A stretch of DNA of 64,000 nt from Escherichia phage UPEC01. This document shows positions 34,263-58,901 of the stretch, in pieces. The stretch's first letter is position 1. Every line of letters starts with the position of its first letter. The stretch lies in sequence record MW233709. One strand, written 5' to 3'. Position numbers and translations under genes: made by a program. Below the pieces are notes generated by a model that saw only the letters and a list, made by a program, of their open reading frames with translations, was not told where the DNA came from and did not search any database.

Positions 34263-34287
34263 CGCTTTAAAAATTTTATGTTATAAT
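34263..34287 (+). promoter_or_regulatory. middle promoter candidate with conserved leader
   Basis: CGCTTTA box, 14 bp, TATAAT followed by GGGGTCTAGGTCC...GGATAC. Confidence 0.5.
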
Positions 34288-34333
34288 GGGGTCTAGGTCC
34301 TTTGGATACCCCAATAACTAAGCGAGAAAAGAA

Positions 34334-34612
34334 ATGTTTCCTACATATTCTGAAATTGTTAAAGTAGTTTTTAGTCAGATTGTATCTGATTATCTATACG
34401 AAAGCGTCGACGTGTCGACTGAACTAAAGGTGCATGGTCGTTTGTCTGCTATTCTGGAAATCATGTTCCCAGATGCAGTTGATGCAATCACTGTTCAACT
34501 CACACCTGGTGCAGCATTTGCAATTGTTCCGTTTAAAATTGATAACCACATTTTGGCTATTTCATGCAAAATGGACTTCCAGAAACAAACGGTAGTTGTC
34601 GAAGCAATTTAA
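34334..34612 (+). CDS. hypothetical protein (92 aa)
   Basis: ORF downstream of MotA-box-type promoter 34263-34287. Confidence 0.45.
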   Translation: MFPTYSEIVKVVFSQIVSDYLYESVDVSTELKVHGRLSAILEIMFPDAVDAITVQLTPGAAFAIVPFKIDNHILAISCKMDFQKQTVVVEAI

Positions 34613-34614
34613 GT

Positions 34615-34643
34615 GTTTACTTTCACCACGGATGGTGTATAAT
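34615..34643 (+). promoter_or_regulatory. early promoter
   Basis: GTTTAC, 17-bp spacer, TATAAT; hairpin CACCA/TGGTG in spacer. Confidence 0.55.
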
Positions 34644-34672
34644 GAATTTCATCAACACATGAGGAAAACAAA

Positions 34673-35215
34673 ATGAGTAATTTCTTTGAAGAAGGCAAGT
34701 TTTACAAGTTCGCATCTGAAAATGCCAAAAAACAGTTTATTGCCGGAGGCTGGGCAGCTAATTACCAAATTGCCAAATACATCGGTATGACTCCGTTTGA
34801 AGTTAAGATTGTCCCTGATACTGCTAGCGGTGGAAGAAAAGTTTGTGAGATTCGTTTGATTGATGAAAAGAATTTTGTGGATTTGGCAAAAATATCTGGT
34901 GCAGAAAACAGGCATCATGGGGCAATGTTTGTTTCTGCTGGTCCATTGTCTGATGAATTTGATTATTTCATCCAAGCGGAAGTTGGCGTTAAGCCAGAAG
35001 TTGAACCTGTGCCAGTAAAACTTGCATCAGTTTGGAAATTGCTTGTGGTTAAAAATGGCAAGATTGAGATTAACTCTCGTCATGTGTCAAAAGAATATGC
35101 GGAAGGCGAAGCAGAGCGTCTGTTAAACCATGGTACTGCAGAAGATTGCTATATTATCAAAGGCGATATCACAAAAGCTTCTATCATTAAACAAGTAAAA
35201 CAGGAGACAATCTGA
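34673..35215 (+). CDS. hypothetical protein (180 aa)
   Basis: ORF after early promoter 34615-34643; N-terminal GKFYKF...KKQFIAG motif shared with 22350 ORF. Confidence 0.5.
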   Translation: MSNFFEEGKFYKFASENAKKQFIAGGWAANYQIAKYIGMTPFEVKIVPDTASGGRKVCEIRLIDEKNFVDLAKISGAENRHHGAMFVSAGPLSDEFDYFIQAEVGVKPEVEPVPVKLASVWKLLVVKNGKIEINSRHVSKEYAEGEAERLLNHGTAEDCYIIKGDITKASIIKQVKQETI

Positions 35216-35460
35216 TGCTTAGCGAAACCCCAATTACTGTTGAAGAGTTCCACGAAAAAGTGAAAGCATTCGCTCAAGCGATGATTAACCGTGTATCAGA
35301 GCGATTCCCTAATGCGACTTTGCAAGTTATTCAGGAATCTGCACGCAGTTTTATGATTGTCATTAATCCGAAAATTACTCTAAAAGGTGGTGACCAATTG
35401 ACCCAACTGAAATTGGGTTCTGATGGTCTGGTTGAAGCGCAGCGAGTGTATATTCAATGA
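35215..35460 (+). CDS. hypothetical protein (81 aa)
   Basis: Coupled ORF. Confidence 0.45.
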   Translation: MLSETPITVEEFHEKVKAFAQAMINRVSERFPNATLQVIQESARSFMIVINPKITLKGGDQLTQLKLGSDGLVEAQRVYIQ

Positions 35461-35792
35461 TGAATTTAATGGATATTTTCCAGGAAGCACTTAAAAATGA
35501 TTTGGGTGACCATCGTAAGTTGGACCCGGAGACAGCCGCATTTATCAAAGTAACGCTTGCGAATGATGCTCTGTTTAAAAGTATTCACCCAAGTAATTAT
35601 GATGCGGTTGTTATTACAGAAGCTCCTGTAGAAATTGGTGAGCGAATGTTTGGGGTGATTTTTGGCGATAAGAAAAAACGCTTCAGCGACGGTGATAGTA
35701 TAATTACAACACATGTTAAGAGCATTACTAAATTGCGACATGAATTATATCGTGTTGAAACTATTAAAACCAATTATCTCGTGGTGATGTAA
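35457..35792 (+). CDS. hypothetical protein (111 aa)
   Basis: ATGA-coupled ORF. Confidence 0.45.
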   Translation: MMNLMDIFQEALKNDLGDHRKLDPETAAFIKVTLANDALFKSIHPSNYDAVVITEAPVEIGERMFGVIFGDKKKRFSDGDSIITTHVKSITKLRHELYRVETIKTNYLVVM

Positions 35793-36374
35793 ATGAAACC
35801 AACTACTGTTCTGCAAATCGCATACCTTGTATCTCAAGAATCCAAATGTTGCTCCTGGAAAGTGGGAGCTGTTATTGAAAAGAATGGCCGCATTATTTCT
35901 ACAGGGTATAATGGTTCCCCTGCGGGTGGGGTTAACTGTTGCGAGCATGCGGAAGAGCAAGGTTGGTTACTGAATAAACCTAAACCTGTTCTCGTCCCTG
36001 GTCATAAGCCAGAATGTGTGAGATTCAGTAAGGTTGACCGTTTTGTATTGGCGAAAGCCCATCGCGAAGAACATTCTGCATGGTCAAAGAACAACGAAAT
36101 TCATGCCGAGCTTAATGCGATTCTGTTCGCAGCCAGAATGGGTTCATCAATTGAAGGCGCTACTATGTATGTGACGCTTTCTCCTTGCCCTGATTGTGCA
36201 AAGGCAATTTCTCAATCAGGAATCAAGAAATTGGTTTACTGTGAAACGTATGATAAGAATATTCCTGGTTGGGATGATATCCTGAAGAACGCGGGAATTG
36301 AGGTGTTCAATGTGCCTAAGCGTAGTTTAGACAAATTGAACTGGGAAAACATTAACGAATTTTGTGGTGAATAA
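35793..36374 (+). CDS. cd: dCMP deaminase
   Basis: 193 aa; zinc-binding HAE and PCxxC motifs (CEHAEEQ, SPCPDCAKAI); size identical to T4 Cd. Confidence 0.9.
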   Translation: MKPTTVLQIAYLVSQESKCCSWKVGAVIEKNGRIISTGYNGSPAGGVNCCEHAEEQGWLLNKPKPVLVPGHKPECVRFSKVDRFVLAKAHREEHSAWSKNNEIHAELNAILFAARMGSSIEGATMYVTLSPCPDCAKAISQSGIKKLVYCETYDKNIPGWDDILKNAGIEVFNVPKRSLDKLNWENINEFCGE

Positions 36375-36607
36375 TGAAATTTCGTCTAGTTAAGTTTTCA
36401 GGTCTGAACTCAAAAGGTGAAAACCTGGTAGCCTTTTCAGTAGAATATAAAAAGTACTTTTTCTCTCGTTGGAAATCGTACTATAAATCTGAGTGGGTTC
36501 GCGCCGAAATGAAATATAAAACGGTGCCTATTCTTGATAATTGTCATAGCCTATTAAGAGCTCTAAAAGAGCGTAATGCAACAACCATTAAAACTGTTTT
36601 GGAATAA
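36374..36607 (+). CDS. hypothetical protein (77 aa)
   Basis: TAATG-coupled ORF. Confidence 0.4.
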   Translation: MKFRLVKFSGLNSKGENLVAFSVEYKKYFFSRWKSYYKSEWVRAEMKYKTVPILDNCHSLLRALKERNATTIKTVLE

Positions 36608-36609
36608 TT

Positions 36610-36909
36610 ATGATTTTAACTGAACAAGAAACAATTCGTCTCCGTGAAAAAGTCAAGACTATTTTGTCTGTTGGTTTTCACGAAGTTCTGTTTGAAAAAG
36701 CAGATGGTAGCATCCGTCGTATGACTTGTACTCGCGACCTGGACCTGCTGCCGTATAAAGAAATCCAGACCCCTGGACCAGAAGCTCATAAAGAACCAGT
36801 TAGCTATATCCGGGTATTTGATACCAAGCTTAATGAATGGCGTTCATTCTGTTTCAATAAATTGATTTCCGTGAATGGACTACAGACCGAGACACTGCTT
36901 GTCCTTTAA
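36610..36909 (+). CDS. hypothetical protein (99 aa)
   Basis: ORF. Confidence 0.45.
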   Translation: MILTEQETIRLREKVKTILSVGFHEVLFEKADGSIRRMTCTRDLDLLPYKEIQTPGPEAHKEPVSYIRVFDTKLNEWRSFCFNKLISVNGLQTETLLVL

Positions 36910-36940
36910 TGCTTCAAACGGTGCGTGTTATTATTAATAC

Positions 36941-37288
36941 ATGACCAAACAACATGGATTAAATATGGAATTACCAATTAAAGCAGTAGGTGAATATATT
37001 ATTTTGGTTTCTGAGCCAAAGCAAGCTGGTGATGAAGAAACTACGGCATCAGGTATCGTTATCGGAAAACTCCATCAGGGTGAAATCCCAGAGATGTGTG
37101 AAGTATTTTCGATTGGTCCGGATGTTCCTGAAGGTTTCTGTGAAGTGGGTGATTTGACTCCTCTTCCGGTTGGCAAGATTGCAAACGTTCCACATCCTCT
37201 GGTTGCTCTGGGACTTAAGCAGGCTAAAGAAGTTAAGCAGAAATTTGTGACCTGTCATTATAAAGCTGTTCCTTGTCTTTATAAGTAA
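36941..37288 (+). CDS. 31: co-chaperonin gp31 (GroES-like)
   Basis: [63 protein letters not shown] match T4 gp31; start could be 36965. Confidence 0.9.
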
Positions 37289-37297
37289 AATTAGCGT

Positions 37298-37305
37298 TAT
37301 AAATA
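37298..37305 (+). promoter_or_regulatory. late promoter candidate upstream of rIII-like gene
   Basis: TATAAATA on + strand. Confidence 0.4.
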
Positions 37306-37445
37306 ATAATATGGATTGGCTGCCGGACCCGTTAGTTAACCGGAGAATCCTAAACGGTGGACTACAACTGAGAGACTTGCCGAAAGGAAGTGAAATTCAG
37401 AAGAACGTGTCCACCAAATATTCACCTCGTATTGAGGCTTCTAAA

Positions 37446-37700
37446 ATGTCTTTAAATAAACAATTACAACACGCTCTTGAACTGCAACGCACTGCATGGA
37501 ATAACGGTCACGAAAACTACGGCGCATCTATTGATGTTGAAGCCGAAGCACTGGAAATTCTGCAGTATTTCAAACATCTTAACCCGATTCAAACCGACCT
37601 TCGCGCAGTGCTCGAAGCAAAAGATGAACTGAAATTTGCTAAGCCGCTGGCATCTGCTGCGCGTAAAGCTGTTCGTCATTTTGTCGTAACCCTGAAGTAA
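37446..37700 (+). CDS. rIII: rIII-like lysis inhibition accessory protein (84 aa)
   Basis: ATG with GAGG RBS; 84 aa right after gene 31, as T4 rIII (82 aa); assignment positional. Confidence 0.4.
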   Translation: MSLNKQLQHALELQRTAWNNGHENYGASIDVEAEALEILQYFKHLNPIQTDLRAVLEAKDELKFAKPLASAARKAVRHFVVTLK

Positions 37701-38097
37701 GCTGTAGGTGATTCGCTACCTTAGTGCGGCTAGAAAATCGAGGAGCCGCCGAATTATCTGATTAATGATTTGCGAATCATTATAGTTTTAGACCCCGATA
37801 ATTTTGTGGTGTACCTCTTGAATGTTATTCTTATAGCGGCAAGTGCATGCTACCCCGAGGTGATGGCCAATCGGGAGTACGCCTCAAGGCCTATATATCC
37901 ATCAGTATATATCTTATCCTCGAGAAATCGAACCCGGAACCTTTAAGCTAACGGTGTGCAACAGATAAGAGCTATAAGGTATGATGACGAGGTTTATGGT
38001 TATCCTGTCGTTAAATATCCGAAACCTAATGTTCCCTTCGAGGGCTTGCGCAGGCAATGCCAATAAGTCCTGCATTCTATTTTAAAGAGAATTTAAT

Positions 38098-38259
38098 ATG
38101 GCTAAGAAAGAAGTTAAAGTTGTTGATGGCTCCTCCAAACGCGATGGTTACAAGCGTGCGTCCAACAAGCGAATCAATCAGGTAACTGATAAACTTCAGG
38201 CTCGTGCTCGTGCGGTATTGCGTGCCGATGCAGCTTGCTTTGGTAAGCCGAAAGCATAA
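38098..38259 (+). CDS. small highly basic protein (53 aa)
   Basis: ATG ORF MAKKEVKVVDGSSKRDGYKRASNKR...; followed by strong terminator 38265-38290. Confidence 0.4.
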   Translation: MAKKEVKVVDGSSKRDGYKRASNKRINQVTDKLQARARAVLRADAACFGKPKA

Positions 38260-38264
38260 GTTCA

Positions 38265-38290
38265 GGGACTCTTCGGAGTCCCTTTTTTAT
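38265..38290 (+). terminator. intrinsic terminator
   Basis: GGGACTC-TTCG-GAGTCCC plus TTTTTTATTTT. Confidence 0.75.
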
Positions 38291-38304
38291 TTTCCATAAA
38301 GGGG

Positions 38305-38333
38305 TTTACAACAGGGTTGGTCCAGTGCATAAT
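38305..38333 (+). promoter_or_regulatory. early promoter cassette
   Basis: GTTTACA ... CATAAT after terminator; conserved block 38334-38354. Confidence 0.6.
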
Positions 38334-38374
38334 GATTCCATACTGAGTTACACAATAAAACACTGGAGAATAAA

Positions 38375-38743
38375 ATGAAAATCAATCTTAACTCATACAT
38401 CAAAGGTAAAGACCACGACGGTTACAAAGCCATTGAAACTAAAGAAATGCAATGGCACTTGTATAAAGAACAATTTGAATTCGTTTCTTGCATGACTCCA
38501 GAAGGTCCTTCTGATGACTTCTCCTGGAAAATTATGGTAACAAACTTTTTTACTGGTGATACCTACGAACTGAAAACTTTGATTCTTGGTAAGATTCGTT
38601 GTAAGACCTATGAAGATGAAGAAACTGGTTATTCTGAAGATGTTACATGGTATCAAAATGGTCGCACCACTGCTGATGATTTGATTGAAAAAATGAAAGC
38701 TAAGGGTGAATTAAATTTAGATAATTGGATTAAAGTCGCATAA
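38375..38743 (+). CDS. hypothetical protein (122 aa)
   Basis: GGAGAATAAAATG RBS after early promoter 38305-38333. Confidence 0.5.
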   Translation: MKINLNSYIKGKDHDGYKAIETKEMQWHLYKEQFEFVSCMTPEGPSDDFSWKIMVTNFFTGDTYELKTLILGKIRCKTYEDEETGYSEDVTWYQNGRTTADDLIEKMKAKGELNLDNWIKVA

Positions 38744-38747
38744 AACA

Positions 38748-38776
38748 GTTTACTTTGGTACAGGTTATGATATTAT
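38748..38776 (+). promoter_or_regulatory. early promoter cassette
   Basis: GTTTAC, 17-bp spacer, TATTAT; 9-bp inverted repeat 38757-38765/38779-38787 brackets -10. Confidence 0.55.
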
Positions 38777-38814
38777 AGACCTGTACCAACAAATGAAAAC
38801 AACTGGAGAATAAA

Positions 38815-39180
38815 ATGAACTACATCAACTTTGAACGCAAATATGTTTCTAACTGCATCCCAGGTTCTTCTGAAGTTATTTGCTTGTGGAAACATAAAAA
38901 TGGTTCAGTGTGCGAAATTGAGCAGTATATGACTCCTAACTACGTTTATATGCGATTTGAAAATGGTATCACTCTTTCAATCACTATGACTGGTTCAACT
39001 TTTAAAATTGCTTTAGATGATGATTTCCGTGAACGTGATTTAGGGACTCATCCTTGCTGGAATGGTGTTAATCGCAAGCTGTTGGTTAAAACTTGGATTC
39101 GTCATATCCTGGGTAACAAAGCAAAACCTGAACACCTGGAAGCAATCTTTGATGTAGTTCTTAATGAATTTGATATCTAA
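38815..39180 (+). CDS. hypothetical protein (121 aa)
   Basis: GGAGAATAAAATG RBS after early promoter 38748-38776. Confidence 0.5.
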   Translation: MNYINFERKYVSNCIPGSSEVICLWKHKNGSVCEIEQYMTPNYVYMRFENGITLSITMTGSTFKIALDDDFRERDLGTHPCWNGVNRKLLVKTWIRHILGNKAKPEHLEAIFDVVLNEFDI

Positions 39181-39217
39181 TCTTAAATGGGGGCGAAAGC
39201 CCCTTGAGGAAAATACT

Positions 39218-39505
39218 ATGTTTATGACTACTTACTTTGATACACGTAAAAATTTCTGTGAAGTTGTTTTCTCTAAAAAAGGCCCTAATGTTCCTGCTGG
39301 GTGTGAACCAACACGCGATTCCATTAAGAACTATGTTGATGTAGTTTGCCCAGTTGAATTCAGGACTGTTAATGGACGTGATACTCTGGCAATCACCAAG
39401 CTTAGACGCGACATTGATATTGACCCAATTGCGGCGCGGGAAATTAATTCATCTGATATTAATGGCGGTAATGTTAAATCGCGCGGTTTCCTGACGAGGT
39501 TCTAA
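39218..39505 (+). CDS. hypothetical protein (95 aa)
   Basis: ATG at 39218 after GAGGAAAATACT RBS and GNRA hairpin. Confidence 0.45.
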   Translation: MFMTTYFDTRKNFCEVVFSKKGPNVPAGCEPTRDSIKNYVDVVCPVEFRTVNGRDTLAITKLRRDIDIDPIAAREINSSDINGGNVKSRGFLTRF

Positions 39506-39699
39506 TGCAACTATTCTTATCACAAACAGTTCAGTTAAAAGGTGTGGGTATTCCTGGAATGATTTCTAAGGTCTTACCTGCTTTTAAATTGGGTAATAAC
39601 CAAATTAAAGAAGCCTATGTAGTCCTGTGGGTTGATGGAACTGAAGATGTTCGCATGGACGGTGAACTGTCTGTAATCAAATGTTTAAGGCGAGGATAA
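39505..39699 (+). CDS. hypothetical protein (64 aa)
   Basis: TAATG-coupled ORF. Confidence 0.4.
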   Translation: MQLFLSQTVQLKGVGIPGMISKVLPAFKLGNNQIKEAYVVLWVDGTEDVRMDGELSVIKCLRRG

Positions 39700-39700
39700 T

Positions 39701-39913
39701 ATGTTTAAGAAACTGATTCAGAAAATTTTGGGCACAGAAATGGTTGAAGTTACTTATCGCGTAACTGACGTGAGTCCATGGGCCCGAAATATTGAACCAT
39801 ATACTAAAACAATTAAAATGCTGAAATCTGACGGTGGATTATCTATTAAAGACCGTCTACCTGGTTATGGTCATTGGGCTGATGTAGATATTATCAGTGT
39901 CAAAGATGTCTGA
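39701..39913 (+). CDS. hypothetical protein (70 aa)
   Basis: ORF with GAGG RBS. Confidence 0.4.
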   Translation: MFKKLIQKILGTEMVEVTYRVTDVSPWARNIEPYTKTIKMLKSDGGLSIKDRLPGYGHWADVDIISVKDV

Positions 39914-40364
39914 GTTAGAAATCAGAAGCAATTTCCCATGGCCATCATGTGCATTAAGTAACTTTGCTAAATGGCCTTTTGTTATGGATGGCATCCAGTT
40001 TGGAGGTCTTGAAGGCTTCCTCCAAGGGTGTAAGGTGAGAAATCATGAACAACAAAAACGTATATTTGGGATGTCCGGTCTGGCCGCACAACAAACTGGA
40101 AGAGCTTATGCTAGAGCTGCGGACCGTGGGACGCTTTTCTGGCTTGGAATTCCCTTTTCAAGATACTCTGCATCATGGAAAGAGTTGTATACAAATGCTT
40201 ATTTTGAAGCAGCGCTTCAAAACAAAGGATTCCGCGACGCATTACAAGCTACAAAGGGCAAAGTTTTAAAGCATTCGATGGCGAGCCACCTTACTGTTCA
40301 TGATACAATATTGACTGAACAAGAATTTATTGACATACTTAACCAATTGAGAGATGCATTATGA
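39897..40364 (+). CDS. NADAR-like (YbiA/DUF1768-like) protein, candidate N-glycosidase / ADP-ribose processing enzyme
   Basis: 155 aa; SNFAKWPF..DG..F...E...Q..K pattern and overall length resemble NADAR/YbiA-family domains; from memory of family motifs, not verified. Confidence 0.45.
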   Translation: MSKMSELEIRSNFPWPSCALSNFAKWPFVMDGIQFGGLEGFLQGCKVRNHEQQKRIFGMSGLAAQQTGRAYARAADRGTLFWLGIPFSRYSASWKELYTNAYFEAALQNKGFRDALQATKGKVLKHSMASHLTVHDTILTEQEFIDILNQLRDAL

Positions 40365-41185
40365 AACCCGTTATTTTAACAGATATTGATGGCGTATGTT
40401 TGTCATGGCAGTCTGGCTTGCCTTATTTCGCCCAAAAATATAATTTACCCCTGGAACATATCCTTAAGATGATTCAGGATGAAAAATTTGTGACCCCTGG
40501 TAAACTGTTCAATTGTGATGAAGAGTTGGGAGCACAGTTGATTGAGAAATATAACTGTTCAGATTTTATTCGCTATTTGTCTCCTTACGCAGATGCATTA
40601 GGGGTTATTAATAACCTCAAAGAGCAATATGATTTTGTGGCTGTTACGGCTCTGGGTGATTCCATTGATGCCCGTCTGAATCGTCAATTCAACCTGAATG
40701 CTTTGTTCCCTGGCGCATTTAAAGAAGTGATGATGTGCGGCCATACAGCCTCTAAAGAAGAGTTATTTCAGAAAGCGAAGACCAAATATAATGTCGTTTG
40801 TTATATTGATGACCTTGCACACCATTGCGACCATGCGAGTGAAATCCTTGAAGTCCCGGTTTATTGGATGGCTCGTGGCGAACGTGATGCTATTCCTAAA
40901 ACAGCTTCCAAAGTTTTTAATTGGGACGATGTTGCTGGACAGCTTAAGTTGAAACACAAAGATGAACCGGTCAAACCCGAATTCACCCCAGATGAACTCC
41001 GTAAACTGGAAGAGTTGTTTCGTGAAAGTCGACGTCTTCAACAACAAATGCAGCAAGGATGGCAACCAGGTCAACCATGGACCCCTGGATATAATCCAGC
41101 ATATCCATATCAATATGGCCAGCGCGTAGGTACTGGTATTGAATACTGGTACAATCAACCGACCGGTGGCCAAGGGGGTAATTGA
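40361..41185 (+). CDS. HAD-superfamily hydrolase-like protein with Q/P/Y/G-rich C-terminal tail
   Basis: 274 aa; N-terminal ILTDIDGV (DxDG HAD motif I), later CYIDD; C-terminal 50 aa low-complexity. Confidence 0.5.
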   Translation: MKPVILTDIDGVCLSWQSGLPYFAQKYNLPLEHILKMIQDEKFVTPGKLFNCDEELGAQLIEKYNCSDFIRYLSPYADALGVINNLKEQYDFVAVTALGDSIDARLNRQFNLNALFPGAFKEVMMCGHTASKEELFQKAKTKYNVVCYIDDLAHHCDHASEILEVPVYWMARGERDAIPKTASKVFNWDDVAGQLKLKHKDEPVKPEFTPDELRKLEELFRESRRLQQQMQQGWQPGQPWTPGYNPAYPYQYGQRVGTGIEYWYNQPTGGQGGN

Positions 41186-51705: not shown

Positions 51706-51729
51706 AGAATCCCCTTTTATCTTTATTGA

Positions 51730-51741
51730 TATTTATAAATA
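51730..51741. promoter_or_regulatory. overlapping divergent late promoters (genes 51 and 26)
   Basis: Palindrome TATTTATAAATA gives TATAAATA on both strands between divergent genes 51 and 26. Confidence 0.6.
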
Positions 51742-51758
51742 CAGTAAAGGAGCAAATT

Positions 51759-52382: not shown

Positions 52383-52772
52383 ATGAATATAAACAAAATG
52401 TATAGCGATGTGTCTCCCGACTTATCTACAAGTTGGGATAAAGACGTTGCTAAAGTAACCGGTGCAAGGTCTGTTAAGAACAGTCTTCTGGGAATAATCA
52501 CCACAAGAAAAGGGTCAAGGCCTTTTATGCCTGAATTTGGATGTGATATAAGTAATCAGCTTTTTGAGAATATCACTCCATTAATCACAGATACCATTAA
52601 ACGCAACATCGTCTCCGCTGTGCGGAACTTTGAACCAAGGATAAGCAATCTACAGGTTGCAGTTGTCCCTATGTATGATGATAACTCCATTATCGTAACG
52701 GTTCAGTTCAGCATTGTTGATGACCCTGATACCCTCGAACAAATCAGGATTCAGCTAAGTCAAAACGGTTAA
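52383..52772 (+). CDS. 25: baseplate wedge subunit gp25
   Basis: 129 aa (T4 gp25 132 aa); synteny. Confidence 0.75.
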   Translation: MNINKMYSDVSPDLSTSWDKDVAKVTGARSVKNSLLGIITTRKGSRPFMPEFGCDISNQLFENITPLITDTIKRNIVSAVRNFEPRISNLQVAVVPMYDDNSIIVTVQFSIVDDPDTLEQIRIQLSQNG

Positions 52773-52797
52773 TGCTTTAATTTTATGGCTGTATAAT
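52773..52797 (+). promoter_or_regulatory. middle promoter candidate upstream of uvsY
   Basis: TGCTTTA box, 14 bp, TATAAT followed by GGTTCTAGACCC...GGATAC. Confidence 0.55.
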
Positions 52798-52825
52798 GGT
52801 TCTAGACCCTTACATTGGATACATT

Positions 52826-53260
52826 ATGAAAACAGAGATTGAATATAAGTTGGAAGTCTTTCAGGACGAGTTAGATGCAGATTTAAAAATTGATGGTACA
52901 CAACTTCAATATGAAACACAAAACAACGTTTTGTTGCATAGCAAATGGTTGAGATTGTATACCAACTGCAAGAAAGAAATAATGCGTCTTGAGATTCAGA
53001 AGAAAACTGCACTGAAAAAACGACTAGACCATTATACGGGAAGGGGTGACCCAGGGGAAGAAGTATGCATGGATGTGTACGAGAAGTCAGAATTGAAAAC
53101 AGTCATGGCCGCAGATTCAAGCGTGTTGAAGATTGATACTTCAATTCAATATTGGGCACTGCTCCAGGACTTCTGTAGCGCTGCATTAGATGGTGTTAAG
53201 TCACGAAGTTTCGCACTTAAACATATGTTAGAAATAAGACAATTTGAGGCGGGCAAGTAA
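52826..53260 (+). CDS. uvsY: recombination mediator UvsY
   Basis: ATG 52826; LQYE..NNV.L.SKWL, RLE.QKK.ALK.RLD.Y.GRGD, SLQYW..L.DFCS.ALD..KSR.FA.KH....R.FEAGK match T4 UvsY. Confidence 0.9.
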   Translation: MKTEIEYKLEVFQDELDADLKIDGTQLQYETQNNVLLHSKWLRLYTNCKKEIMRLEIQKKTALKKRLDHYTGRGDPGEEVCMDVYEKSELKTVMAADSSVLKIDTSIQYWALLQDFCSAALDGVKSRSFALKHMLEIRQFEAGK

Positions 53261-53493
53261 TGCGATATTCTATCGACGATGCGTTTAACCAAGACGAAGA
53301 GTTCGAAGAAGAAATTAAGTATATGATGAAGGAATGGAAATTGAATCGTGCAGATATTCGTATCTGCGCTGACCACCCTTGTGGTGAAGATGTTATCTAT
53401 GTTAAAGGTAAATTTGCGGGATACATCGATGATGCGTTCTATTCTCACAATATGGGAATAGATACTGGTATGAGATACTTTAAGGAAAATTAA
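53260..53493 (+). CDS. hypothetical protein (77 aa)
   Basis: ATGA-coupled to uvsY. Confidence 0.45.
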   Translation: MRYSIDDAFNQDEEFEEEIKYMMKEWKLNRADIRICADHPCGEDVIYVKGKFAGYIDDAFYSHNMGIDTGMRYFKEN

Positions 53494-53604
53494 ATGAAAA
53501 ATATTAGTAAGATTCTCGACGAGATGGTTATCTCTGCAAACCGAATAACCGAAATTGTTAATGAGATGAAAGCTCGTGCTGCTATTATGAAGAGCACTAA
53601 ATAG
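53494..53604 (+). CDS. small hypothetical protein (36 aa)
   Basis: TAAATG adjacency to upstream stop; very short. Confidence 0.25.
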   Translation: MKNISKILDEMVISANRITEIVNEMKARAAIMKSTK

Positions 53605-53632
53605 ATATGTAAGTTTAACTGAGGAGACAATC

Positions 53633-53800
53633 ATGTCAGATAAGATTTGTGTTGTCTGTAAAACTCCAATCGATTCTGCATTGGTTGTGGATACAGACCA
53701 AGGTCCGGTGCATCCGGGCGCCTGTTATAATTATGTTCAGAGTTTGCCAGTTACGGAAAATACAGAAGAGCAACTGAACGAGACCCAACTTTTAATTTAG
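53633..53800 (+). CDS. small Cys-containing protein (55 aa)
   Basis: ATG after GAGGAGACAATC RBS; CVVC...C motif; followed by terminator. Confidence 0.35.
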   Translation: MSDKICVVCKTPIDSALVVDTDQGPVHPGACYNYVQSLPVTENTEEQLNETQLLI

Positions 53801-53825
53801 CTAGTGTTGTTAACCATTTTTGGTT

Positions 53826-53855
53826 TTGCCCCTTCCTTTTGGTTGGGGCCTTTTT
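53826..53855 (+). terminator. intrinsic terminator candidate
   Basis: GCCCC...GGGGC stem followed by CTTTTTATTTA. Confidence 0.45.
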
Positions 53856-53857
53856 AT

Positions 53858-54085
53858 TTAGAAATCTTCGTCTTCGTCTTCGTCCATATCCTCAAGCTCG
53901 GCACGTTTACCGGCAAGAGCGTCACGAACACTGATATCATCGGAATCTTTCAGTTCAGCTTCTTTGCTGCGTTTCTTATAATAGCCTTCCAACTCCTTCA
54001 GACCGTCCATGGTCTGACAGGAACCAATCTTAGCCATAAAGCCTTCAATTGATGCTTCGTACATAATTTCTTCGAAGGATTTCAT
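53858..54085 (-). CDS. UvsW.1-like small acidic protein
   Basis: 75 aa with acidic tail DMDEDEDEDF; T4 UvsW.1 is 76 aa and follows uvsW. Confidence 0.5.
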   Translation of the reverse strand: MKSFEEIMYEASIEGFMAKIGSCQTMDGLKELEGYYKKRSKEAELKDSDDISVRDALAGKRAELEDMDEDEDEDF

Positions 54086-54780
54086 TATATTTCCACCTGT
54101 TTAATTAAATTTCTGATTTTATATAAAGAAAGCCCCGTTGCTACAGAAGCTTGCTTCATCGAACCATATTCAATCCCGTTTAAAACCACTTTCTTAGCGG
54201 CAGGATTTTTGGATGGGTCTTTATAACGTTCTTTTGCTTTATCTGAAATTTTCTTTGATGCTTCTGGTGTATGTGATTTACCATACATCCAATTACCTTC
54301 ACCTTTATTTCTTTCGGATATAGCTTGACATTGTGCTTGAGAGTATTTATACGGATTCGCTTTCTTTGTCGCAGATATTTTATCGGCCCAAGTTATTTTG
54401 CGACCCTTTAATAATTGGCTCATATATTCTTTATGTTCTTCAGTATGGTGCTTACCATAAAAAGGATTGCCTTCACCAGTCTGAAGAACTGACATTTGTC
54501 TACGCTCCCATCCATACGATTTATTGAATTGTCGTTGATGTGTTCGAGAGCTCATACCCATAGCAATGACGGCCTTTATAAGACCGTAATGATTGGGATG
54601 AATTTTGGCCAATAATTTATGTGCAATAAAATGTTCTTCCGGAGTAAGGTTGACTCTGTTTTCTTGTGTATCAGGTCCACCCATACATTCTGGAATGATA
54701 TGGTGAGATTCCGTGTATCCAATCGGTTTGGAAGCCTTTCGGCTCCCAATTAAATCATCATATATTTTTTGATAATTCAA
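54085..54780 (-). CDS. HNH homing endonuclease with NUMOD-like repeats
   Basis: 231 aa; HNH core (GYTESHHIIPECMGGPDTQENRVNLTPEEHFIAHKLL) and repeated G-x-GNPFYGK-HT-E motifs; inserted between uvsW and uvsW.1. Confidence 0.85.
   Translation of the reverse strand: MNYQKIYDDLIGSRKASKPIGYTESHHIIPECMGGPDTQENRVNLTPEEHFIAHKLLAKIHPNHYGLIKAVIAMGMSSRTHQRQFNKSYGWERRQMSVLQTGEGNPFYGKHHTEEHKEYMSQLLKGRKITWADKISATKKANPYKYSQAQCQAISERNKGEGNWMYGKSHTPEASKKISDKAKERYKDPSKNPAAKKVVLNGIEYGSMKQASVATGLSLYKIRNLIKQVEI
54089..54107. repeat. 19-bp direct repeat, copy 1
   Basis: Exact match to 54781-54799. Confidence 0.9.
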
Positions 54781-56276
54781 ATTTCCACCTGTTTAATTAC
54801 ATAGTTAAAACGTTCATCAGCATATCGTTGTATACGTTCAAGGCCATGTTTTAGGGCAAAGTTCAAATGAACATATTTCTTTTTAGCATTTGCCGATTTA
54901 GGTTTAACACCCATATCATCAACGATATCAAAAACGTTTGCTTGTGATTTGGATTCATGTTTTCTAAGCACACGACCAATTGTCTGGAGTACAATTACCT
55001 TTGACTTGACCGGGTGAGCGAAAATAATATGATGGAGGTTTTTAACGGAAATCCCCGTTGAGAATACACCATATGAAGCTACAACAATAATTCCCTTTCC
55101 ATTCTCTGCCATGACCTTCAGAGCATTACGAGTTTCGGTATCGACTTCCCCAGAAACATAATACACTTTTTCATGACCAGCTTCCTTAAGCATTTCAAAC
55201 ATCGATTTACCATGCTCGATATTCTTAAACATCAAAAAGACGTTTTCATCTTTTTTAGAAAGCTTGAGTGCAAGGTTTGTTACCCATTTATTTCGGCGTG
55301 CAGCTTTTGTAATTACCTTGATTTCATCCTGATAAGTTTTACCTTTCATTTTAACGGTGAATTCATCAGGGTAACGAAGGAAAATACTATTTATTTTAAG
55401 GTCAGTAACCTGACCATCTTCCATTAATTTAGATGTTGATACTGGTTTAAAGATATCACCAAACAGACCCATATATTGCATAAGGTTGGCTTTGCCATCA
55501 CGGAGTGAACCTGACAGACCAAATTTAAACATGCAATTCGTAAGGCCTTCGATAACCGTCGAAATCGATTTACCTGTAGCCATATGACATTCGTCATTCA
55601 TAAACTGACCGAACTGTTCAAACCATTCTTTAGGTTGTTTTACAGCCGTCTGATAAGTCGATACATAAATCATCGCATCAGAATCGCGTTTAGTCCCGGA
55701 ACGAATACCCAGACAAGCTGCACGAGGGAAAAGCCGATAATCAACAAAGTCATTAATCATCTGGTCAACAAGGGCCGTTGTAGGAACAAGGATAAGTACC
55801 TTGCCTTCATAGTTCTCGAGATAATATCGCGCCAGAAGCGCCTGGATGAGGCTTTTACCTGCAGACGTAGGTAAGTTCAGAATCTTTCTTCTGTTGACCA
55901 GACCATCATATACGGCGTCAGATTGATACCAATGGGGCGTTATCTTGGTATTGCCTGAATAGATTTCTTTTGACTCGACCCATTTGTCGAATTCTTCGCG
56001 AGAGATTTCTTCTTTCTCGGTGATTTGCGGGTCAATCCAGAATGAATAACCAAACTGGTCAGCGAACTTTTTAATTTGATTAACCAAACCGTATGGTAAT
56101 TTACGATTGTAATCCAGGAGGCGGATTCGTCCGTCCCAAACTCCCTGCTTGAACTTTGGATTGAAGCGATAGTTTTCAGCTTCGAAGCTGAAGTAATCAC
56201 GGAGTTCGTAGAAGATTCCATCTTCACATTCAACATGCACGTGACTAAAATTTAGAAAGTTGATTTTAATATCCAT
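54777..56276 (-). CDS. uvsW: DNA helicase UvsW
   Basis: Start at MDIKINF (ATG 56276) matching T4 UvsW N-terminus; helicase motifs LNLPTSAGKS, DECH; late promoter at 56305-56312. Confidence 0.9.
   Translation of the reverse strand: MDIKINFLNFSHVHVECEDGIFYELRDYFSFEAENYRFNPKFKQGVWDGRIRLLDYNRKLPYGLVNQIKKFADQFGYSFWIDPQITEKEEISREEFDKWVESKEIYSGNTKITPHWYQSDAVYDGLVNRRKILNLPTSAGKSLIQALLARYYLENYEGKVLILVPTTALVDQMINDFVDYRLFPRAACLGIRSGTKRDSDAMIYVSTYQTAVKQPKEWFEQFGQFMNDECHMATGKSISTVIEGLTNCMFKFGLSGSLRDGKANLMQYMGLFGDIFKPVSTSKLMEDGQVTDLKINSIFLRYPDEFTVKMKGKTYQDEIKVITKAARRNKWVTNLALKLSKKDENVFLMFKNIEHGKSMFEMLKEAGHEKVYYVSGEVDTETRNALKVMAENGKGIIVVASYGVFSTGISVKNLHHIIFAHPVKSKVIVLQTIGRVLRKHESKSQANVFDIVDDMGVKPKSANAKKKYVHLNFALKHGLERIQRYADERFNYVIKQVEI
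54781..54799. repeat. 19-bp direct repeat, copy 2
   Basis: Exact match to 54089-54107. Confidence 0.9.
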
Positions 56277-56304
56277 GATGATTCCAAGGTAATAAATATA
56301 TCTA

Positions 56305-56312
56305 TATTTATA
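56305..56312 (-). promoter_or_regulatory. late promoter for uvsW
   Basis: TATAAATA on - strand 29 nt upstream of ATG 56276. Confidence 0.55.
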
Positions 56313-56330
56313 CACTAACCGAGGTTCATC

Positions 56331-56996
56331 ATGATTGACAAGAACTACATTGAGGAAATTCGTGTCCTCGAGAAAAAAGAAGCCAAAGAAAAATTAGCCG
56401 AATACGCAGCATCACTTGGTGTTGATGTTAAGAAAACAAAAACCTTTGATAATATGTTGGCCGACCTGGAAGCAGGACTTAAAGCATTTGCTGACATGCC
56501 TATGCCTGATGATAATGAAGGCCTGAGCATCACTGACCTTATCGACGCCGATGATGAATTGTCAGGTGCTAAATTTGATGGCGACGAGTCAGCTAAAGAA
56601 GAAGCTAAACTCTTATTTGATGCTCCAACCGAAGCAAAGGTTGAAGTTGTTGAAATCGAAGAACCAGTTGTTGTGGTTGAAGAAGATGTTCCTTTTGTCG
56701 AAGAAAAGTTCGAAGCGGCTGTTGCTAAGGTTATCGAATCTGAAAAACCTGTATTTGCTCTGCCAAAAAACTTTAGCCCGAATTTAATGCTTATTGGTAA
56801 GAACCCTGGATTCTGTACTGTTCCATGGTGGATTTATCAGTGGATTGCCGAGACTCCAGATTGGAAAGAACGTCCAACTGCTTTCCCACATCCCACCGCG
56901 CACCAAACTCTATTCAGTTTGATTTATTACATCAATCGTAATGGGTCTGTTCTAGTACGAGAAACTCGTAACTCATCTTTTGTCACTTTAAAATAA
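56331..56996 (+). CDS. inh: prohead protease inhibitor Inh-like
   Basis: 221 aa acidic protein between uvsW and hoc (T4 Inh 226 aa); positional. Confidence 0.55.
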   Translation: MIDKNYIEEIRVLEKKEAKEKLAEYAASLGVDVKKTKTFDNMLADLEAGLKAFADMPMPDDNEGLSITDLIDADDELSGAKFDGDESAKEEAKLLFDAPTEAKVEVVEIEEPVVVVEEDVPFVEEKFEAAVAKVIESEKPVFALPKNFSPNLMLIGKNPGFCTVPWWIYQWIAETPDWKERPTAFPHPTAHQTLFSLIYYINRNGSVLVRETRNSSFVTLK

Positions 56997-57005
56997 GGGT
57001 TTATT

Positions 57006-58139
57006 ATGGCTTATACCGTAACTATTGCTCCTTTGGCGGCTACGGCCGTTATTGGAGCAACAACCAATTTCACTGCGACCGGTTCCGGTGCTGCAGCTGA
57101 AGGTACCGAATCATTTGTCTGGACCGTTGATGGCGTTCCTCAATCTTCTGTGACTGCTGCAATGGATTATGTTGCTGTTGGTCCAGCAGGCAGTAAGACT
57201 ATTAAAGTTGTTGCAACAACTACACCAGCGGACGGCGAACCAGAAACAGCTGAAGCCGAAACAACTTTAACTATCCAGAATAAAACAATGCCTGCTATTA
57301 CATTGACTTTAGACCCGGCCTCTGTTACTAAAGAAGTGGGGCAATCTCAAGTTGTTACTGCTAACGTGACAGGCGCTCCTTCTGGTGCAACAATCGCTTA
57401 TGTTTGGAAACGAAATGCCGACGTAATCGCAGGTCAAACTGGTAAAACTATTACCGTCACCGAATCAGCAGAAGCAAATTATACATTGAACTGTGAAGTT
57501 ACTGTTTCTGCACCCGATTATAATAATGGCACCGCATCTAAAGGAGCTGCGGTAACTTTTGTTAAGAAAACTATGTCGGGTGTTTCTGTTACTTTAGCAC
57601 CAACCTCTATTAATGTTCCTGAAGGAACTCCGGCTTCATTTAAAGCAGATGTAGTTGGCGCACCGAGTGGAGCTACTTTTGCCTATTCTTGGAAGAAAGA
57701 CGGTTCTCCTGTAGTTGGCACCACGGATACTTTAGCAATCGATACAAGCGCCGAAGGTTCCCAGTTAATTGAAGTTTCTGTTGTTGTATCTGCTACAGAT
57801 TATAATCCTGTTACAGTTACCAAAACCGGTAATGTAACAGTCACGGCTAAAGTCGCACCAGTTCCAGAGGGTGAACTACCTTACGTTCATCCGCTGCCAG
57901 TTCGTAATTCAGCTTATATCTGGTGTGGTTGGTGGGTTATGGATGAAATTCAGAAAATGACTCTTGCTGGACAAGACTGGAAAACCGATGACCCAGATAG
58001 CCCGTATTATTTGCACCGATATACACTTCAAAAAATGATTACCGACTATCCAGAGGTTGATGTACAGGAATCTCGTAATGGTCGAATTATTCATCGCACC
58101 GCTTTAGAAACTGGTATTATATACGATTACGTTTATTAA
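57006..58139 (+). CDS. hoc: highly immunogenic outer capsid protein Hoc
   Basis: 377 aa; Ig-like repeats and C-terminal capsid-binding block (YNPVTVTKTGNVTVTAKVAP.PEGELPYVHPLP...AYIWCGWWVMDEIQKMT) near-identical to T4 Hoc. Confidence 0.9.
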   Translation: MAYTVTIAPLAATAVIGATTNFTATGSGAAAEGTESFVWTVDGVPQSSVTAAMDYVAVGPAGSKTIKVVATTTPADGEPETAEAETTLTIQNKTMPAITLTLDPASVTKEVGQSQVVTANVTGAPSGATIAYVWKRNADVIAGQTGKTITVTESAEANYTLNCEVTVSAPDYNNGTASKGAAVTFVKKTMSGVSVTLAPTSINVPEGTPASFKADVVGAPSGATFAYSWKKDGSPVVGTTDTLAIDTSAEGSQLIEVSVVVSATDYNPVTVTKTGNVTVTAKVAPVPEGELPYVHPLPVRNSAYIWCGWWVMDEIQKMTLAGQDWKTDDPDSPYYLHRYTLQKMITDYPEVDVQESRNGRIIHRTALETGIIYDYVY

Positions 58140-58142
58140 TTA

Positions 58143-58172
58143 AAAAGGGACCTTCGGGTCCCTTTATTTTTA
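58143..58172 (+). terminator. intrinsic terminator after hoc
   Basis: GGGACC-TTCG-GGTCCC plus T-run. Confidence 0.75.
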
Positions 58173-58307
58173 TGGTACTGAGCAAACGTTGTCTGGACCC
58201 TTTCTCCAGTGAGTCTTTGTGGTCATACCATAACAATTGTTCATCTGACATAAAACTCCTGTTTACAAGTTAAAAATTCCATGTTAAGATAGCTTCACTA
58301 ACTCAAC

Positions 58308-58511
58308 ATGAGAATCATTATGGATAAGGTTAAAGTACATTTTCTGCATGAATCTGGCATGACATTTATTGAAATCGCCAAGGTATTAGGCGGGACTGCT
58401 AAAGAGATGGCAAAAGCCTGGGTTGATGTAGAACAAGCCAAAGCTAAATTTAAAGCGAAAGAAAAGATTGTTTATCGTAAACGTTTGAATAACAAAAAGG
58501 TGAAGAAATGA
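58308..58511 (+). CDS. hypothetical protein (67 aa)
   Basis: ORF between hoc and rnlB (T4 24.3 position); alternative start 58320. Confidence 0.45.
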   Translation: MRIIMDKVKVHFLHESGMTFIEIAKVLGGTAKEMAKAWVDVEQAKAKFKAKEKIVYRKRLNNKKVKK

Positions 58512-58771
58512 CATTCGCAGAAGAACTACGCCAAATGGCAAAAGAGTCACAAGATAAAGTTGCAAATGACTTTATTGCTATATTCCGCAAAGTGGCTATT
58601 GCCGCCGCTGAAAATGGCAAAGATTTTGTTAATATGGCAGTTTCTGAAAAAGAATATGAAGAAGGCAATCGTGGAAAAATATCTGATTTTCTGCGGGCAG
58701 AAAAATTTACATCATTTACCTGGAATTTTGATTGGCAAGAAAACAAGCCAACATTGTATGTAAAATTCTGA
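58508..58771 (+). CDS. hypothetical protein (87 aa)
   Basis: ATGA-coupled ORF (T4 24.2 position). Confidence 0.45.
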   Translation: MTFAEELRQMAKESQDKVANDFIAIFRKVAIAAAENGKDFVNMAVSEKEYEEGNRGKISDFLRAEKFTSFTWNFDWQENKPTLYVKF

Positions 58772-58777
58772 CCTTTT

Positions 58778-58803
58778 TGCTTCAAATAAAATTGTGGTAT
58801 AAT
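58778..58803 (+). promoter_or_regulatory. middle promoter candidate upstream of rnlB
   Basis: TGCTTCA box, 15 bp, TATAAT followed by GGTTCTAGACC...CGATAC. Confidence 0.5.
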
Positions 58804-58901
58804 GGTTCTAGACCTTCCGATACGATTAATTTCTTTTCAGAGAAAGAAAGTATAGAGAGTCTAATTTATAATGATATTTATAACATCAAAAGTGAGAGAT
58901 T

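Follow-up and report, generated by a model that had tools for sequence, protein, structure and literature searches.

A conserved start region shared by a subclass of MotA-type middle promoters of T4-like phages

Anatomy of the promoters

The 64,000 nucleotides of Escherichia phage UPEC01 analyzed here (record MW233709; hereafter the window) come from a T4-like Gaprivervirus genome (Tevenvirinae). They encode homologs of both MotA, the trans-activator of the middle promoter class (4867..5466, plus strand, with the Pfam domains MotA_activ and MotCF and 33% identity to T4 MotA), and AsiA, the co-activator and anti-sigma factor (7426..7674, plus strand, 53% identity to T4 AsiA by tblastn). A preliminary description of the sequence had placed middle promoters at 34263-34310, 52773-52820, and 58778-58825, and all three are found there. 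They lie on the plus strand with a common layout: a MotA box, a spacer of 12–13 bp, the hexamer TATAAT, and GG(G)(G/T)TCTAG(A/G)(T)CC.

The first site lies upstream of cd.3 (DUF7355; ORF 34334-34612). Its MotA box, CGCTTTA (34263..34269), is separated by 12 bp from TATAAT (34282..34287), and the start module (34288..34309) opens with GGGGTCT (34288-34294), a discriminator of 7 nt because of one extra G. This is followed by AGGTCCTTTGGATAC, with a predicted +1 A at 34295, then AGGTCCTTTGG and GGATAC (34304-34309). The second site occupies the slot of T4 PuvsY/oriF, between gene 25 and uvsY, with its MotA box (TGCTTTA, 52773..52779) directly 3′ of the gene 25 stop codon and TATAAT (52792..52797) after 12 bp. 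In its start module (52798..52822), the discriminator GGTTCT precedes AGACCCTTACATTGGATAC, with the predicted +1 A (52804), then AGACCCTTACATT and GGATAC (52817-52822); the latter probably overlaps a weak ribosome-binding site of uvsY, the ATG of which is at 52826. At the third site, the MotA box TGCTTCA (58778..58784) is followed after 13 bp by TATAAT (58798..58803), preceded by TGG (an extended −10). The start module (58804..58823) consists of GGTTCT, a predicted +1 A at 58810, and AGACCTTCCGATAC, and a leader of 92 nt leads to the rnlB ATG at 58902.

The MotA-box/−10 pattern of the preliminary description stands, but not its spacing of about 14 bp: the measured values are 12, 12, and 13 bp, in agreement with the T4 rule of 12 ± 1 bp. 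The contexts of the three boxes (TTAACGCTTTA, TTAATGCTTTA, and TTTTTGCTTCA) fit (a/t)(a/t)(a/t)TGCTTtA centered near −30, and the C for T at the cd.3 site is within the published tolerance (PMC2988021). Together with the encoded MotA and AsiA, this anatomy supports the assignment of the three sites as MotA/AsiA-dependent middle promoters, with dependence in vivo predicted from homology to T4. T4 PuvsY, PnrdC.7, and P34i, which work by sigma appropriation, likewise combine (T/C)GCTT(T/C)A, 12–13 bp, and TATAAT with motA and asiA.

A looser member of the group lies outside the range of the preliminary description, at 16039..16080 on the plus strand, and is the ortholog of T4 P34i/oriG. It has TGCTTCA, 13 bp, TATAAT (16059-16064), GGTCCC, and a predicted +1 A at 16071 followed by AGAGCGTCCC, and it is antisense within gene 34 (ORF 14341-18297, minus strand). 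This antisense promoter is present in T4, RB69, and the window; a search for it in JS98 found none.

Conservation of the start region

The gapped patterns TATAATGG N1-2 TCTAG N1-2 CC and TATAATGG..TCTAG..GATAC match the window only at the cd.3, uvsY, and rnlB sites (expected matches, 0.00 for both in 100 dinucleotide-preserving shuffles), and the last two share 17 identical bases, TATAATGGTTCTAGACC. When 5-mers are counted without bias in the 18 nt 3′ of the −10, over every MotA-type promoter in this lineage, TCTAG comes first (4 observed versus 0.06 expected, p = 3e-7). In the window and in TH41, the full GGTTCTAGACC occurs at these promoters only, and the shorter core TCTAGGTCC has one further copy, in coding sequence at 10791.

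The class exceeds the three members first described: it has at least 7–8 in this lineage and, over four genera (T4, RB69, JS98, and Gaprivervirus), at least 24, with the consensus TATAAT-GGTTCT|A(G/A)G(T)CC-TTCC. The block keeps a fixed register relative to the −10 throughout the 24 tabulated sites, +1 coming after 6 nt (7 at the cd.3 site). The conserved columns, counted over the 23 sites in which +1 comes after 6 nt, are G-6 (23), G-5 (19), T-4 (17), T-3 (19), C-2 (20), T-1 (19), and A+1 (21). The spacers between MotA box and −10 are unrelated in sequence from site to site. The T4 members are at (+)11897, 53325, (+)76000, 115371, and 153011, with orthologs in JS98, RB69, and Gaprivervirus/TH41; at uvsY of further lineages, GG(G/T)(T/C)C(T/C)|A is kept while all flanks differ. 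Hence, the conservation beyond the promoter hexamers is real and is held at orthologous promoters of related genera, as the preliminary description had supposed.

Any two members are 59–70% identical over −6..+6, whether from the same or different genomes or sites. Some sites within a genome are much closer: T4 srd/modA and uvsY have 21 nt in common, Gaprivervirus uvsY, rnlB, and 3/2 have 17, RB69 uvsY and 3/2 have 18, and JS98 nrdC.6 and 18/19 are identical at 22 of 24 nt. The most enriched core word also changes with the lineage, from CTAAG in T4 to CTAGG in JS98 (also in RB69) and CTAGA in Gaprivervirus. An extended −10 (TGn) is found in 13 of the 24 sites and is not enriched, so these promoters are not simply optimized in every element.

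Several members are antisense: the one between srd and modA and the one between genes 3 and 2 in four of four genera each, and the 18/19 intergenic one in JS98 and TH41. The cd.3 site is found in Gaprivervirus and one Dhakavirus-like contig, and is absent from JS98 and T4. In T4, P24.3 and PrnlB have other start regions and cd.3 has no promoter, whereas here both rnlB and cd.3 carry promoters of the family. At the T4 members of the family, the start region is homologous (TATAATGAATCT|AAGTCC in T4 versus TATAATGGTTCT|AGACC here). The published consensus of T4 middle promoters reaches no further than the −10, with TGn added in about half of them, and a subclass defined by a conserved discriminator and initial transcribed block is absent from the reviews consulted.

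The preliminary description had located TCTAGA at the expected start site, and the starts mapped for T4 PnrdC.7 (53325), PuvsY (115371), and P34i (153011) agree (PMC2988021 Table 1), as all three correspond to the predicted A directly after TCT or CCC. The start of T4 PnrdD+ (46440) is the A one base 3′ of the predicted one. By homology, +1 would thus lie in the center of the putative palindrome (TCT|AG), and the starts of the three promoters would be at 34295, 52804, and 58810.

The symmetry itself is not conserved. TCTAGA is found only in Gaprivervirus, T4 having TCTAAG, RB69 and JS98 having TCTAGG, TTTAGG, or CCTAGG, and the 34i sites CCCAGA. Even at the three promoters of the window, the dyad is imperfect beyond TCTAGA, and only half of it would be in the RNA because transcription starts at its center. 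The structured 5′ end also proposed finds no support, since the leaders fold no better than shuffled sequences (z-scores from −1.2 to +1.1). Nor do family leaders fold better than other middle-promoter leaders (minimum free energies of −3.1 and −3.9 kcal/mol, respectively), the Rfam search of the leaders gave no match, and the hairpin partner at the cd.3 site is altered in relatives without compensation. As for GATAC, which had been included in the conserved block, it is largely lineage specific: its distance to the block ranges from 3 to 7 nt at the three sites, close relatives have GGATAC, GAATAAC, or GGATAAT at cd.3, and elsewhere it recurs only sporadically (e.g., RB69 uvsY). Given an unconserved dyad, leaders that fold no better than shuffled sequence, and a largely lineage-specific GATAC, what is conserved is therefore the discriminator together with the first 10–17 transcribed bases.

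Interpretations of the start module

We hold with moderate confidence that the three promoters belong to a conserved subclass of MotA/AsiA middle promoters of Tevenvirinae, the start module of which acts at the level of promoter and RNA polymerase. From the observed anatomy, conservation, and T4 start position, we infer contacts with RNA polymerase and an effect on its activity. The shared unit would comprise the discriminator GGTTCT, the start A, and the pyrimidine-rich, G-poor first 10–17 transcribed bases, A(G/A)G(T)CC-TTCC.., with the palindrome as a by-product of the start context, neither operator nor RNA hairpin. The G residues at −6/−5 would be bound by sigma-70 region 1.2, an aid where the −35 contact is missing. 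The pyrimidine run TTCT, the purine A at position 7, and G+2 would restrict initiation to one base and keep the 5′ end uniform, and the pyrimidine-rich first transcribed bases would probably tune promoter escape. Selection on the consensus would hold the dispersed copies alike, probably with occasional short gene conversion, because the near-identical pairs of sites differ from genome to genome.

The module fits known rules. A GGG discriminator sets the start 7 bp after the −10, Y-1/R+1 is preferred, and G+2 belongs to the core recognition element (PMC5730371); sigma region 1.2 reads a GGGA placed 3′ of the −10 (PMC3526302). The positions −6 to −4, directly 3′ of the −10, are G-rich here (GGGG at the cd.3 site, GGT at the uvsY and rnlB sites). 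The family resembles promoters with the GGGA discriminator and the core recognition element in G-6/G-5 directly after a consensus −10, a start exactly 7 bp on, T-1/A+1, and, in this phage, G+2. It differs in having T instead of A at −3, and T4 has GAATCT at two sites and A instead of G at +2, so known polymerase preferences are matched only in part. The effect of G-rich discriminators through sigma region 1.2 is also modest in the E. coli enzyme (about 7–10 fold; PMC3526302). Moreover, conservation extends far past +2, to about +10 to +17. We know of no sequence-specific contact of RNA polymerase that far downstream. The polymerase-level reading also leaves unexplained the presence in the subclass of both R-loop origin promoters and many antisense promoters, as well as the lineage shifts among CTAAG, CTAGG, and CTAGA, because the host polymerase is the same.

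The origins suggest a less likely alternative, that the start module marks middle promoters whose transcripts remain as R-loops or act in some other way as RNA and not as mRNA. They would prime replication, as at oriF and oriG, and in late-gene clusters would place a primer end on the non-transcribed strand. Both T4 R-loop origin promoters, PuvsY and P34i, are in the family (PMC2988021, PMC3016281), sharing its discriminator and start A. The uvsY site and 16039-16071 are their orthologs in position and sequence and, like oriF (ori(uvsY)) and oriG (ori(34)), have a MotA-type promoter, the DNA behind which may be comparably A+T-rich. Origin activity is defined by experiment, through plasmid replication and a persistent R-loop; the two sites here are candidate origins. 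Unlike them, the cd.3 and rnlB sites have no known origin counterpart. Many members (srd/modA, 3/2, 18/19, and the antisense 34i) are unable to serve adjoining genes, but those of uvsY, rnlB, cd.3, and nrdC.7 are in ordinary mRNA positions. A+T content at +11..+100 is 70.5% in the family versus 64.8%, a comparison confounded by intergenic location; among mapped T4 promoters alone it is 72.4% versus 67.9% (p = 0.06). An active origin (five are named: oriA, C, E, F, and G; PMC3016281) lies within 0–6 kb of each of the five clearest T4 sites (11.9, 53.3, 76.0, 115.4, and 153.0 kb), a weak association that is post hoc, is expected by chance at about 4%, and uses coarse origin maps. The published view runs counter to this alternative: oriF and oriG have "little homology," the literature stressing their lack of common sequence, R-loop formation is independent of specific downstream sequence, and the plasmid screens reviewed isolated only these two origins (PMC3016281). 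In addition, P34i matches the family in the discriminator and AGA only, not in the remaining block. G-rich RNA usually favors R-loops, but the leaders are the opposite, C-rich and G-poor.

It is unlikely that the functional unit is instead a 5′ RNA element, namely the first 10–17 nt (AGACCUUCC.. or AAGUCCUUCC..), single-stranded and pyrimidine-rich, which could bind a protein (S1, Rho, or a phage factor) or determine 5′-end-dependent decay. Conservation does reach +10..+17, as in TTCCGATAC, common to Gaprivervirus rnlB (the third site of the window) and RB69 uvsY, and in TTCCATT(A/C)A at the 3/2 sites of T4, RB69, and JS98. Small indels between +1 and (T)CC-TTCC are tolerated, which is easier to reconcile with an RNA element than with a rigid DNA site. 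The leaders are unstructured, the pyrimidine run 5′ of +1 would give a uniform 5′ end, and positions +4..+25 are G-poor (9% versus 17%) and C-rich (26% versus 17%), although the C enrichment results partly from the motif definition. Yet the best-conserved columns, −6..−1, are untranscribed, and a search for a complementary target co-varying with the lineage variants found none. Several members have no ORF and, where there is one, its start codon is 22 to about 100 nt away, which makes a translational role unlikely.

The preliminary description had also suggested a protein-binding site, and a phage DNA-binding protein over +1 could in principle turn this subset of promoters on or off. This is quite improbable, although the block lies where repressors act and each lineage has its own core word, perhaps the outcome of co-evolution with a phage factor, because the host polymerase is shared. 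The dyad is not kept among members, the internal length varies (AGACC, AGGTCC, AAGTCC, and GACC), and pairwise identities show little effect of lineage (0.70 versus 0.64). The restriction of GGTTCTAGACC to these promoters, with the one coding-sequence copy of its core, also counts against an operator. No such factor is, to our knowledge, known in T4.

T4-type phages reportedly carry promoter-stem-loop cassettes (PeSL/PmSL; Arbiol 2010, Comeau 2014), which are also short dispersed promoter repeats, possible recombination substrates, and in some cases beside variable genes. In these, a terminator stem-loop lies just 5′ of the promoter and similarity is upstream of or over the hexamers, whereas here the extra conservation is 3′ of the −10; an inverted-repeat search of about 100 bp 5′ of the three sites (with a terminator scan at the rnlB site only) found no stem-loop. 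A functionless cassette of shared ancestry, homogenized by recombination between such repeats, is very unlikely: near-identical pairs over 17–21 nt that differ between genomes, the patchy cd.3 site, and the proposal of promoter motifs as recombination substrates (PMC4122927) favor it, but spacers and distal leaders are unrelated at the same sites, so that a conversion tract would have to cover the same stretch of about 20 bp every time, and the block is kept at orthologous sites across genera with flanks saturated with change.

Possible link with replication origins

Start selection by the polymerase remains our preferred explanation. A rather doubtful extension of the origin-priming alternative is that GGTTCT|AG(N)CC-TTCC is the signature of a dispersed set of "primer" promoters, with MotA-dependent transcripts persisting as RNA-DNA hybrids, beyond oriF and oriG, at the srd/modA, 3/2, and 18/19 antisense and nrdC.7 sense promoters. 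In late-gene clusters, the antisense RNA would pair with the non-transcribed strand of late genes. The sliding clamp gp45 activates late promoters from that polarity. If this were true, these primer sites would couple origin firing to late transcription, and the module would provide the sequence rule that has long been sought for the formation of R-loops at the origins of T4.

Three middle promoters with a common start region

The sites S1 (34263-34309), S2 (52773-52822) and S3 (58778-58823), all on the plus strand, are present as the preliminary description had them, and the gapped patterns match exactly these three, with none expected in shuffled sequence. S1 (CGCTTTA, 12 bp, TATAAT, GGGGTCT, AGGTCCTTTGGATAC) lies ahead of cd.3 (ORF 34334-34612, DUF7355). 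S2 (TGCTTTA, 12 bp, TATAAT, GGTTCT, AGACCCTTACATTGGATAC) extends from the stop codon of gene 25 to 4 nt before the ATG of uvsY (52826), and S3 (TGCTTCA, 13 bp, TATAAT, GGTTCT, AGACCTTCCGATAC) lies 92 nt ahead of rnlB. In kind they are ordinary MotA middle promoters, one of them orthologous to a classic promoter and origin of T4. They share a block comprising the discriminator and the first transcribed bases, GGTTCT·A(G/A)G(T)CC-TTCC, where the point precedes +1. An unbiased 5-mer count over the first 18 nt downstream of the −10, taken across all MotA-type promoters of the lineage, has TCTAG on top (p = 3e-7). The remaining MotA-type promoters of the window have A/T-rich start regions, unrelated to the block.

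Around S1 the sequence shows 100% identity to Escherichia virus TH41 and 97% to Shigella phage SP18, both Gaprivervirus (Tevenvirinae). Because the window departs from TH41 outside about 29-64 kb, TH41 serves only as a proxy for the genome outside the window, and such sites stand for the lineage, not for the exact phage. Over 1-28722, identity to TH41 (L125) falls to 83-98% in blocks across the tail-fibre and early region, with a gap at 9307-10341; the window is not TH41 and looks like a mosaic relative. The plus strand of the window matches the T4 minus strand, i.e., the strand of the T4 early and middle genes. Encoded in the window are AsiA (7426-7674, +) and a MotA homologue (4867-5466, +) with both Pfam MotA domains; this protein is only 33% identical to T4 MotA, although the MotA boxes do not differ from those of T4.

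Some other features of the region deserve mention. A 231-residue ORF with NUMOD3 motifs, a DNA-binding module of homing-endonuclease type (54088-54780, −), lies between uvsW (54777-56315) and a separate uvsW.1-like C-terminal piece (about 53900-54076). Endonuclease content varies between close relatives, since in SP18 an annotated homing endonuclease (2072-2797 of locus L001, −; compared with window about 33200-33760) overlaps the end of pseT, whereas in the window pseT (32952-33857) is followed directly by cd.4. A second repeated promoter cassette, AGTAGTGTACA..(G)TATAATGA(T/A)TCCATACTGAGTT, lacks a MotA box and occurs, always on the plus strand, at window 350-420 and in TH41 at about 43500 of L124 and about 7480 of L125. 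It looks like a class of early promoters with a conserved start region of its own, and is probably the other cassette class of the preliminary description.

A family across four genera

The block is not confined to a class of three sites but marks a wider family at other loci of T4-like genomes. Members were found by an IMG/VR pattern scan for the block after MotA boxes, followed by whole-genome scans; chance matches in unrelated viruses dominate the former, and only the T4-like contigs of roughly 170 kb are informative. By tblastx, the matches in T4-like genomes fall at orthologues of uvsY, rnlB and cd.3 and at new places. The block is kept at orthologous promoters in T4, RB69, JS98 and Gaprivervirus, with at least 24 members in these four genera.

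In T4, TATAAT is followed by GAATCT·AAGTCCTTCC at (+)11897 (srd/modA intergenic, antisense), GGTTCT·AAGCCC at 53325 (PnrdC.7), GGGTCT·AAGTCCCTTCC at (+)76000 (gene 3/gene 2 intergenic, antisense), GAATCT·AAGTCC at 115371 (PuvsY, which is oriF) and GGTCCC·AGAGAGTTCC at 153011 (P34i, which is oriG, antisense in gene 34). JS98 has an antisense member at srd/modA, GGTTCT·AGGTTC at nrdC.6, GGTCCT·AGGTCTGTTCC at 3/2 (antisense), GGTTTT·AGGTTC at 18/19 (intergenic, about 99.75 kb in L239, minus strand, antisense), GGGTCT·AGGTCCTTCC at rnlB and GGTCCT·ATGG at uvsY. RB69 has members at srd/modA and 3/2 (both antisense), rnlB and 34i, and GGTTTT·AGGTCCTTCCGATAC at uvsY. Besides S1-S3, Gaprivervirus, represented by TH41, has GGTTCT·AGACCTTTTG at 3/2 (antisense), GGTTCT·GACCTTTG at an nrdC.7-like locus, GGTTCT·AAGGTC at srd/mod (antisense) and GGTTCT·ACGG at 18/19 (L123 4810-4860, +, antisense). 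The 18/19 member of JS98 and TH41 lies between the tail sheath and tail tube genes, where T4 has only late promoters. The window itself holds the P34i/oriG orthologue at 16039-16080 (+; TGCTTCA, 13 bp, TATAAT, GGTCCC·AGAGCGTCCC), antisense inside tail-fibre gene 34 (ORF 14341-18297, minus strand) and near-identical to T4 P34i up to +4.

Two of the T4 sites, at NC_000866 11866-11910 (+) and 75968-76015 (+), are MotA-type with a perfect TATAAT and lie on the "late" strand. Both are conserved in RB69, JS98 and TH41, and neither figures among the 58 published middle promoters; possibly they are antisense promoters that have escaped notice in the best-studied phage.

Among the 23 of 24 tabulated sites with a 6-nt register, G occupies −6 in 23/23 and −5 in 19, T occupies −4 in 17 and −3 in 19, and C−2, T−1 and A+1 are found in 20, 19 and 21, respectively. 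In still more distant lineages uvsY keeps GG(G/T)(T/C)C(T/C)·A with every flanking base changed. Spacers between MotA box and −10 show no similarity between family sites, and an extended −10 is present in 13/24, equal to middle promoters generally. Identity between any two members over −6 to +6 is 59-70%, regardless of whether genome or site is the same. After the −10, the most enriched word is CTAAG for T4, CTAGG for JS98 and TCTAG/CTAGA for Gaprivervirus, and near-identical pairs of sites over 17-21 nt occur, which pair depending on the genome. These patterns hint that the sites undergo some gene conversion or co-evolve with a phage factor, which is kept as a hint because the same-genome excess is small (0.70 vs 0.64 pairwise), too modest for strong concerted evolution.

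Start point and nature of the conserved unit

Hinton's review tabulates the start sites of 58 T4 middle promoters (Table 1, PMC2988021). It places the start of PnrdC.7, PuvsY and P34i on the A that immediately follows TCT or CCC, and that of PnrdD+ on an A one base downstream of this position (GAATCTG·A). Counted from the −10, these starts are the seventh base. By homology, starts are predicted at 34295, 52804, 58810 and 16071 in the window. The palindrome had been placed at the expected start, and the mapped T4 starts of homologous promoters indeed fall on the equivalent of its central A, so TCTAGA straddles +1 and only its 3′ half enters the RNA. That the family is a MotA-promoter subclass starting at this central A is very probable.

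The preliminary description holds as observation and only in part as interpretation, since neither its conserved dyad nor its structured 5′ end survives. The dyad varies: TCTAAG in T4, TCTAGG, TTTAGG or CCTAGG in RB69/JS98, CCCAGA at 34i. Leaders folded from +1 or −6, including any hairpin formed by the palindrome or GATAC, are no more stable than shuffles and do not differ from other middle-promoter leaders; the pairing partner in S1 is altered in relatives without compensation, and Rfam has no match in the whole window. The shared GATAC recurs at RB69 uvsY, but varies at cd.3 among close relatives and is replaced at rnlB in a Gaprivervirus-like contig (L102). It is most readily taken as the end of a longer module, TTCC(G/A)(A/T)TA(C/A), and in S2 it probably overlaps a weak ribosome-binding site.

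The block keeps a fixed register to the −10, and the columns best conserved in it, −6 to −1, are not transcribed; it should therefore act at the promoter. A G-rich discriminator is read by sigma region 1.2 with a start 7 bp after the −10, and other start-site determinants are a pyrimidine at −1, a purine at +1 and G at +2 (PMC5730371, PMC3526302); the block fits these. The best explanation, to which we give about an even chance, is a core-promoter start module. The discriminator would contact sigma region 1.2 and set the start 7 bp after the −10, and, since the run TTCT before +1 offers no purine ahead of the A at position 7, a uniform 5′ end is expected. An extra sigma-discriminator contact could plausibly help where a promoter class gave up its −35 contact. 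However, only a modest effect is reported for the E. coli polymerase, two of the T4 sites have GAA and T4 has A at +2, and conservation reaches +10 to +17, a distance at which the target can only be promoter escape or the RNA.

Less probably, the start module would mark promoters that prime replication by forming R-loops, beyond oriF and oriG; we consider this unlikely. The family includes the two promoters of T4 that are known to drive R-loop origins. It also takes in three or more other orthologous positions in intergenic DNA where the promoter opposes all neighbouring genes: four genera have srd/modA and 3/2, two have 18/19. The plus-strand T4 members of this group are the two outside the published 58. 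Taken singly, each indication for this reading is weak, and P34i fits the block only partly. DNA after family promoters is somewhat richer in A+T, a confounded result, and the five clearest T4 sites each lie 0-6 kb from one of the five origins that Kreuzer and Brister name as active (PMC3016281), a post hoc proximity expected by chance in about 4%. Furthermore, the leaders are C-rich, not G-rich, and according to that review R-loop formation needs no specific sequence.

Other candidates fail. S1-S3 are not PeSL/PmSL cassettes, because an inverted-repeat search reveals no stem-loop like that of these cassettes within about 100 bp upstream of S1-S3, nor does a terminator scan upstream of S3. A small antisense RNA with its own terminator is rejected as no conserved terminator follows the 3/2 promoter in T4 or TH41, and a search for trans targets that could pair with the 5′ block and vary with the lineage gives only chance matches in the compared genomes, apart from a match conserved in the ipIII coding sequence, which shows no co-variation with lineage.

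Implications for middle promoters and origins

T4 middle promoters have so far been defined by just the MotA box and the −10. A full-text literature search for the motif string matched no paper, and a conserved start-region module defining a subclass appears undescribed in the literature reachable for this analysis. The block is conserved over four genera, also at intergenic promoters whose orientation suits no nearby gene. Because the rules of R-loop formation are described as an open question and origins as lacking a common motif (PMC3016281), the family offers a direct experimental handle: a block common to both origin promoters would supply concrete, mutable sequences for testing the R-loop origin question. 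Should its role be limited to tuning the stability of the open complex and the precision of the start, the block would refine promoter anatomy only modestly, and would even then be of use in annotating and engineering T4-like phages.
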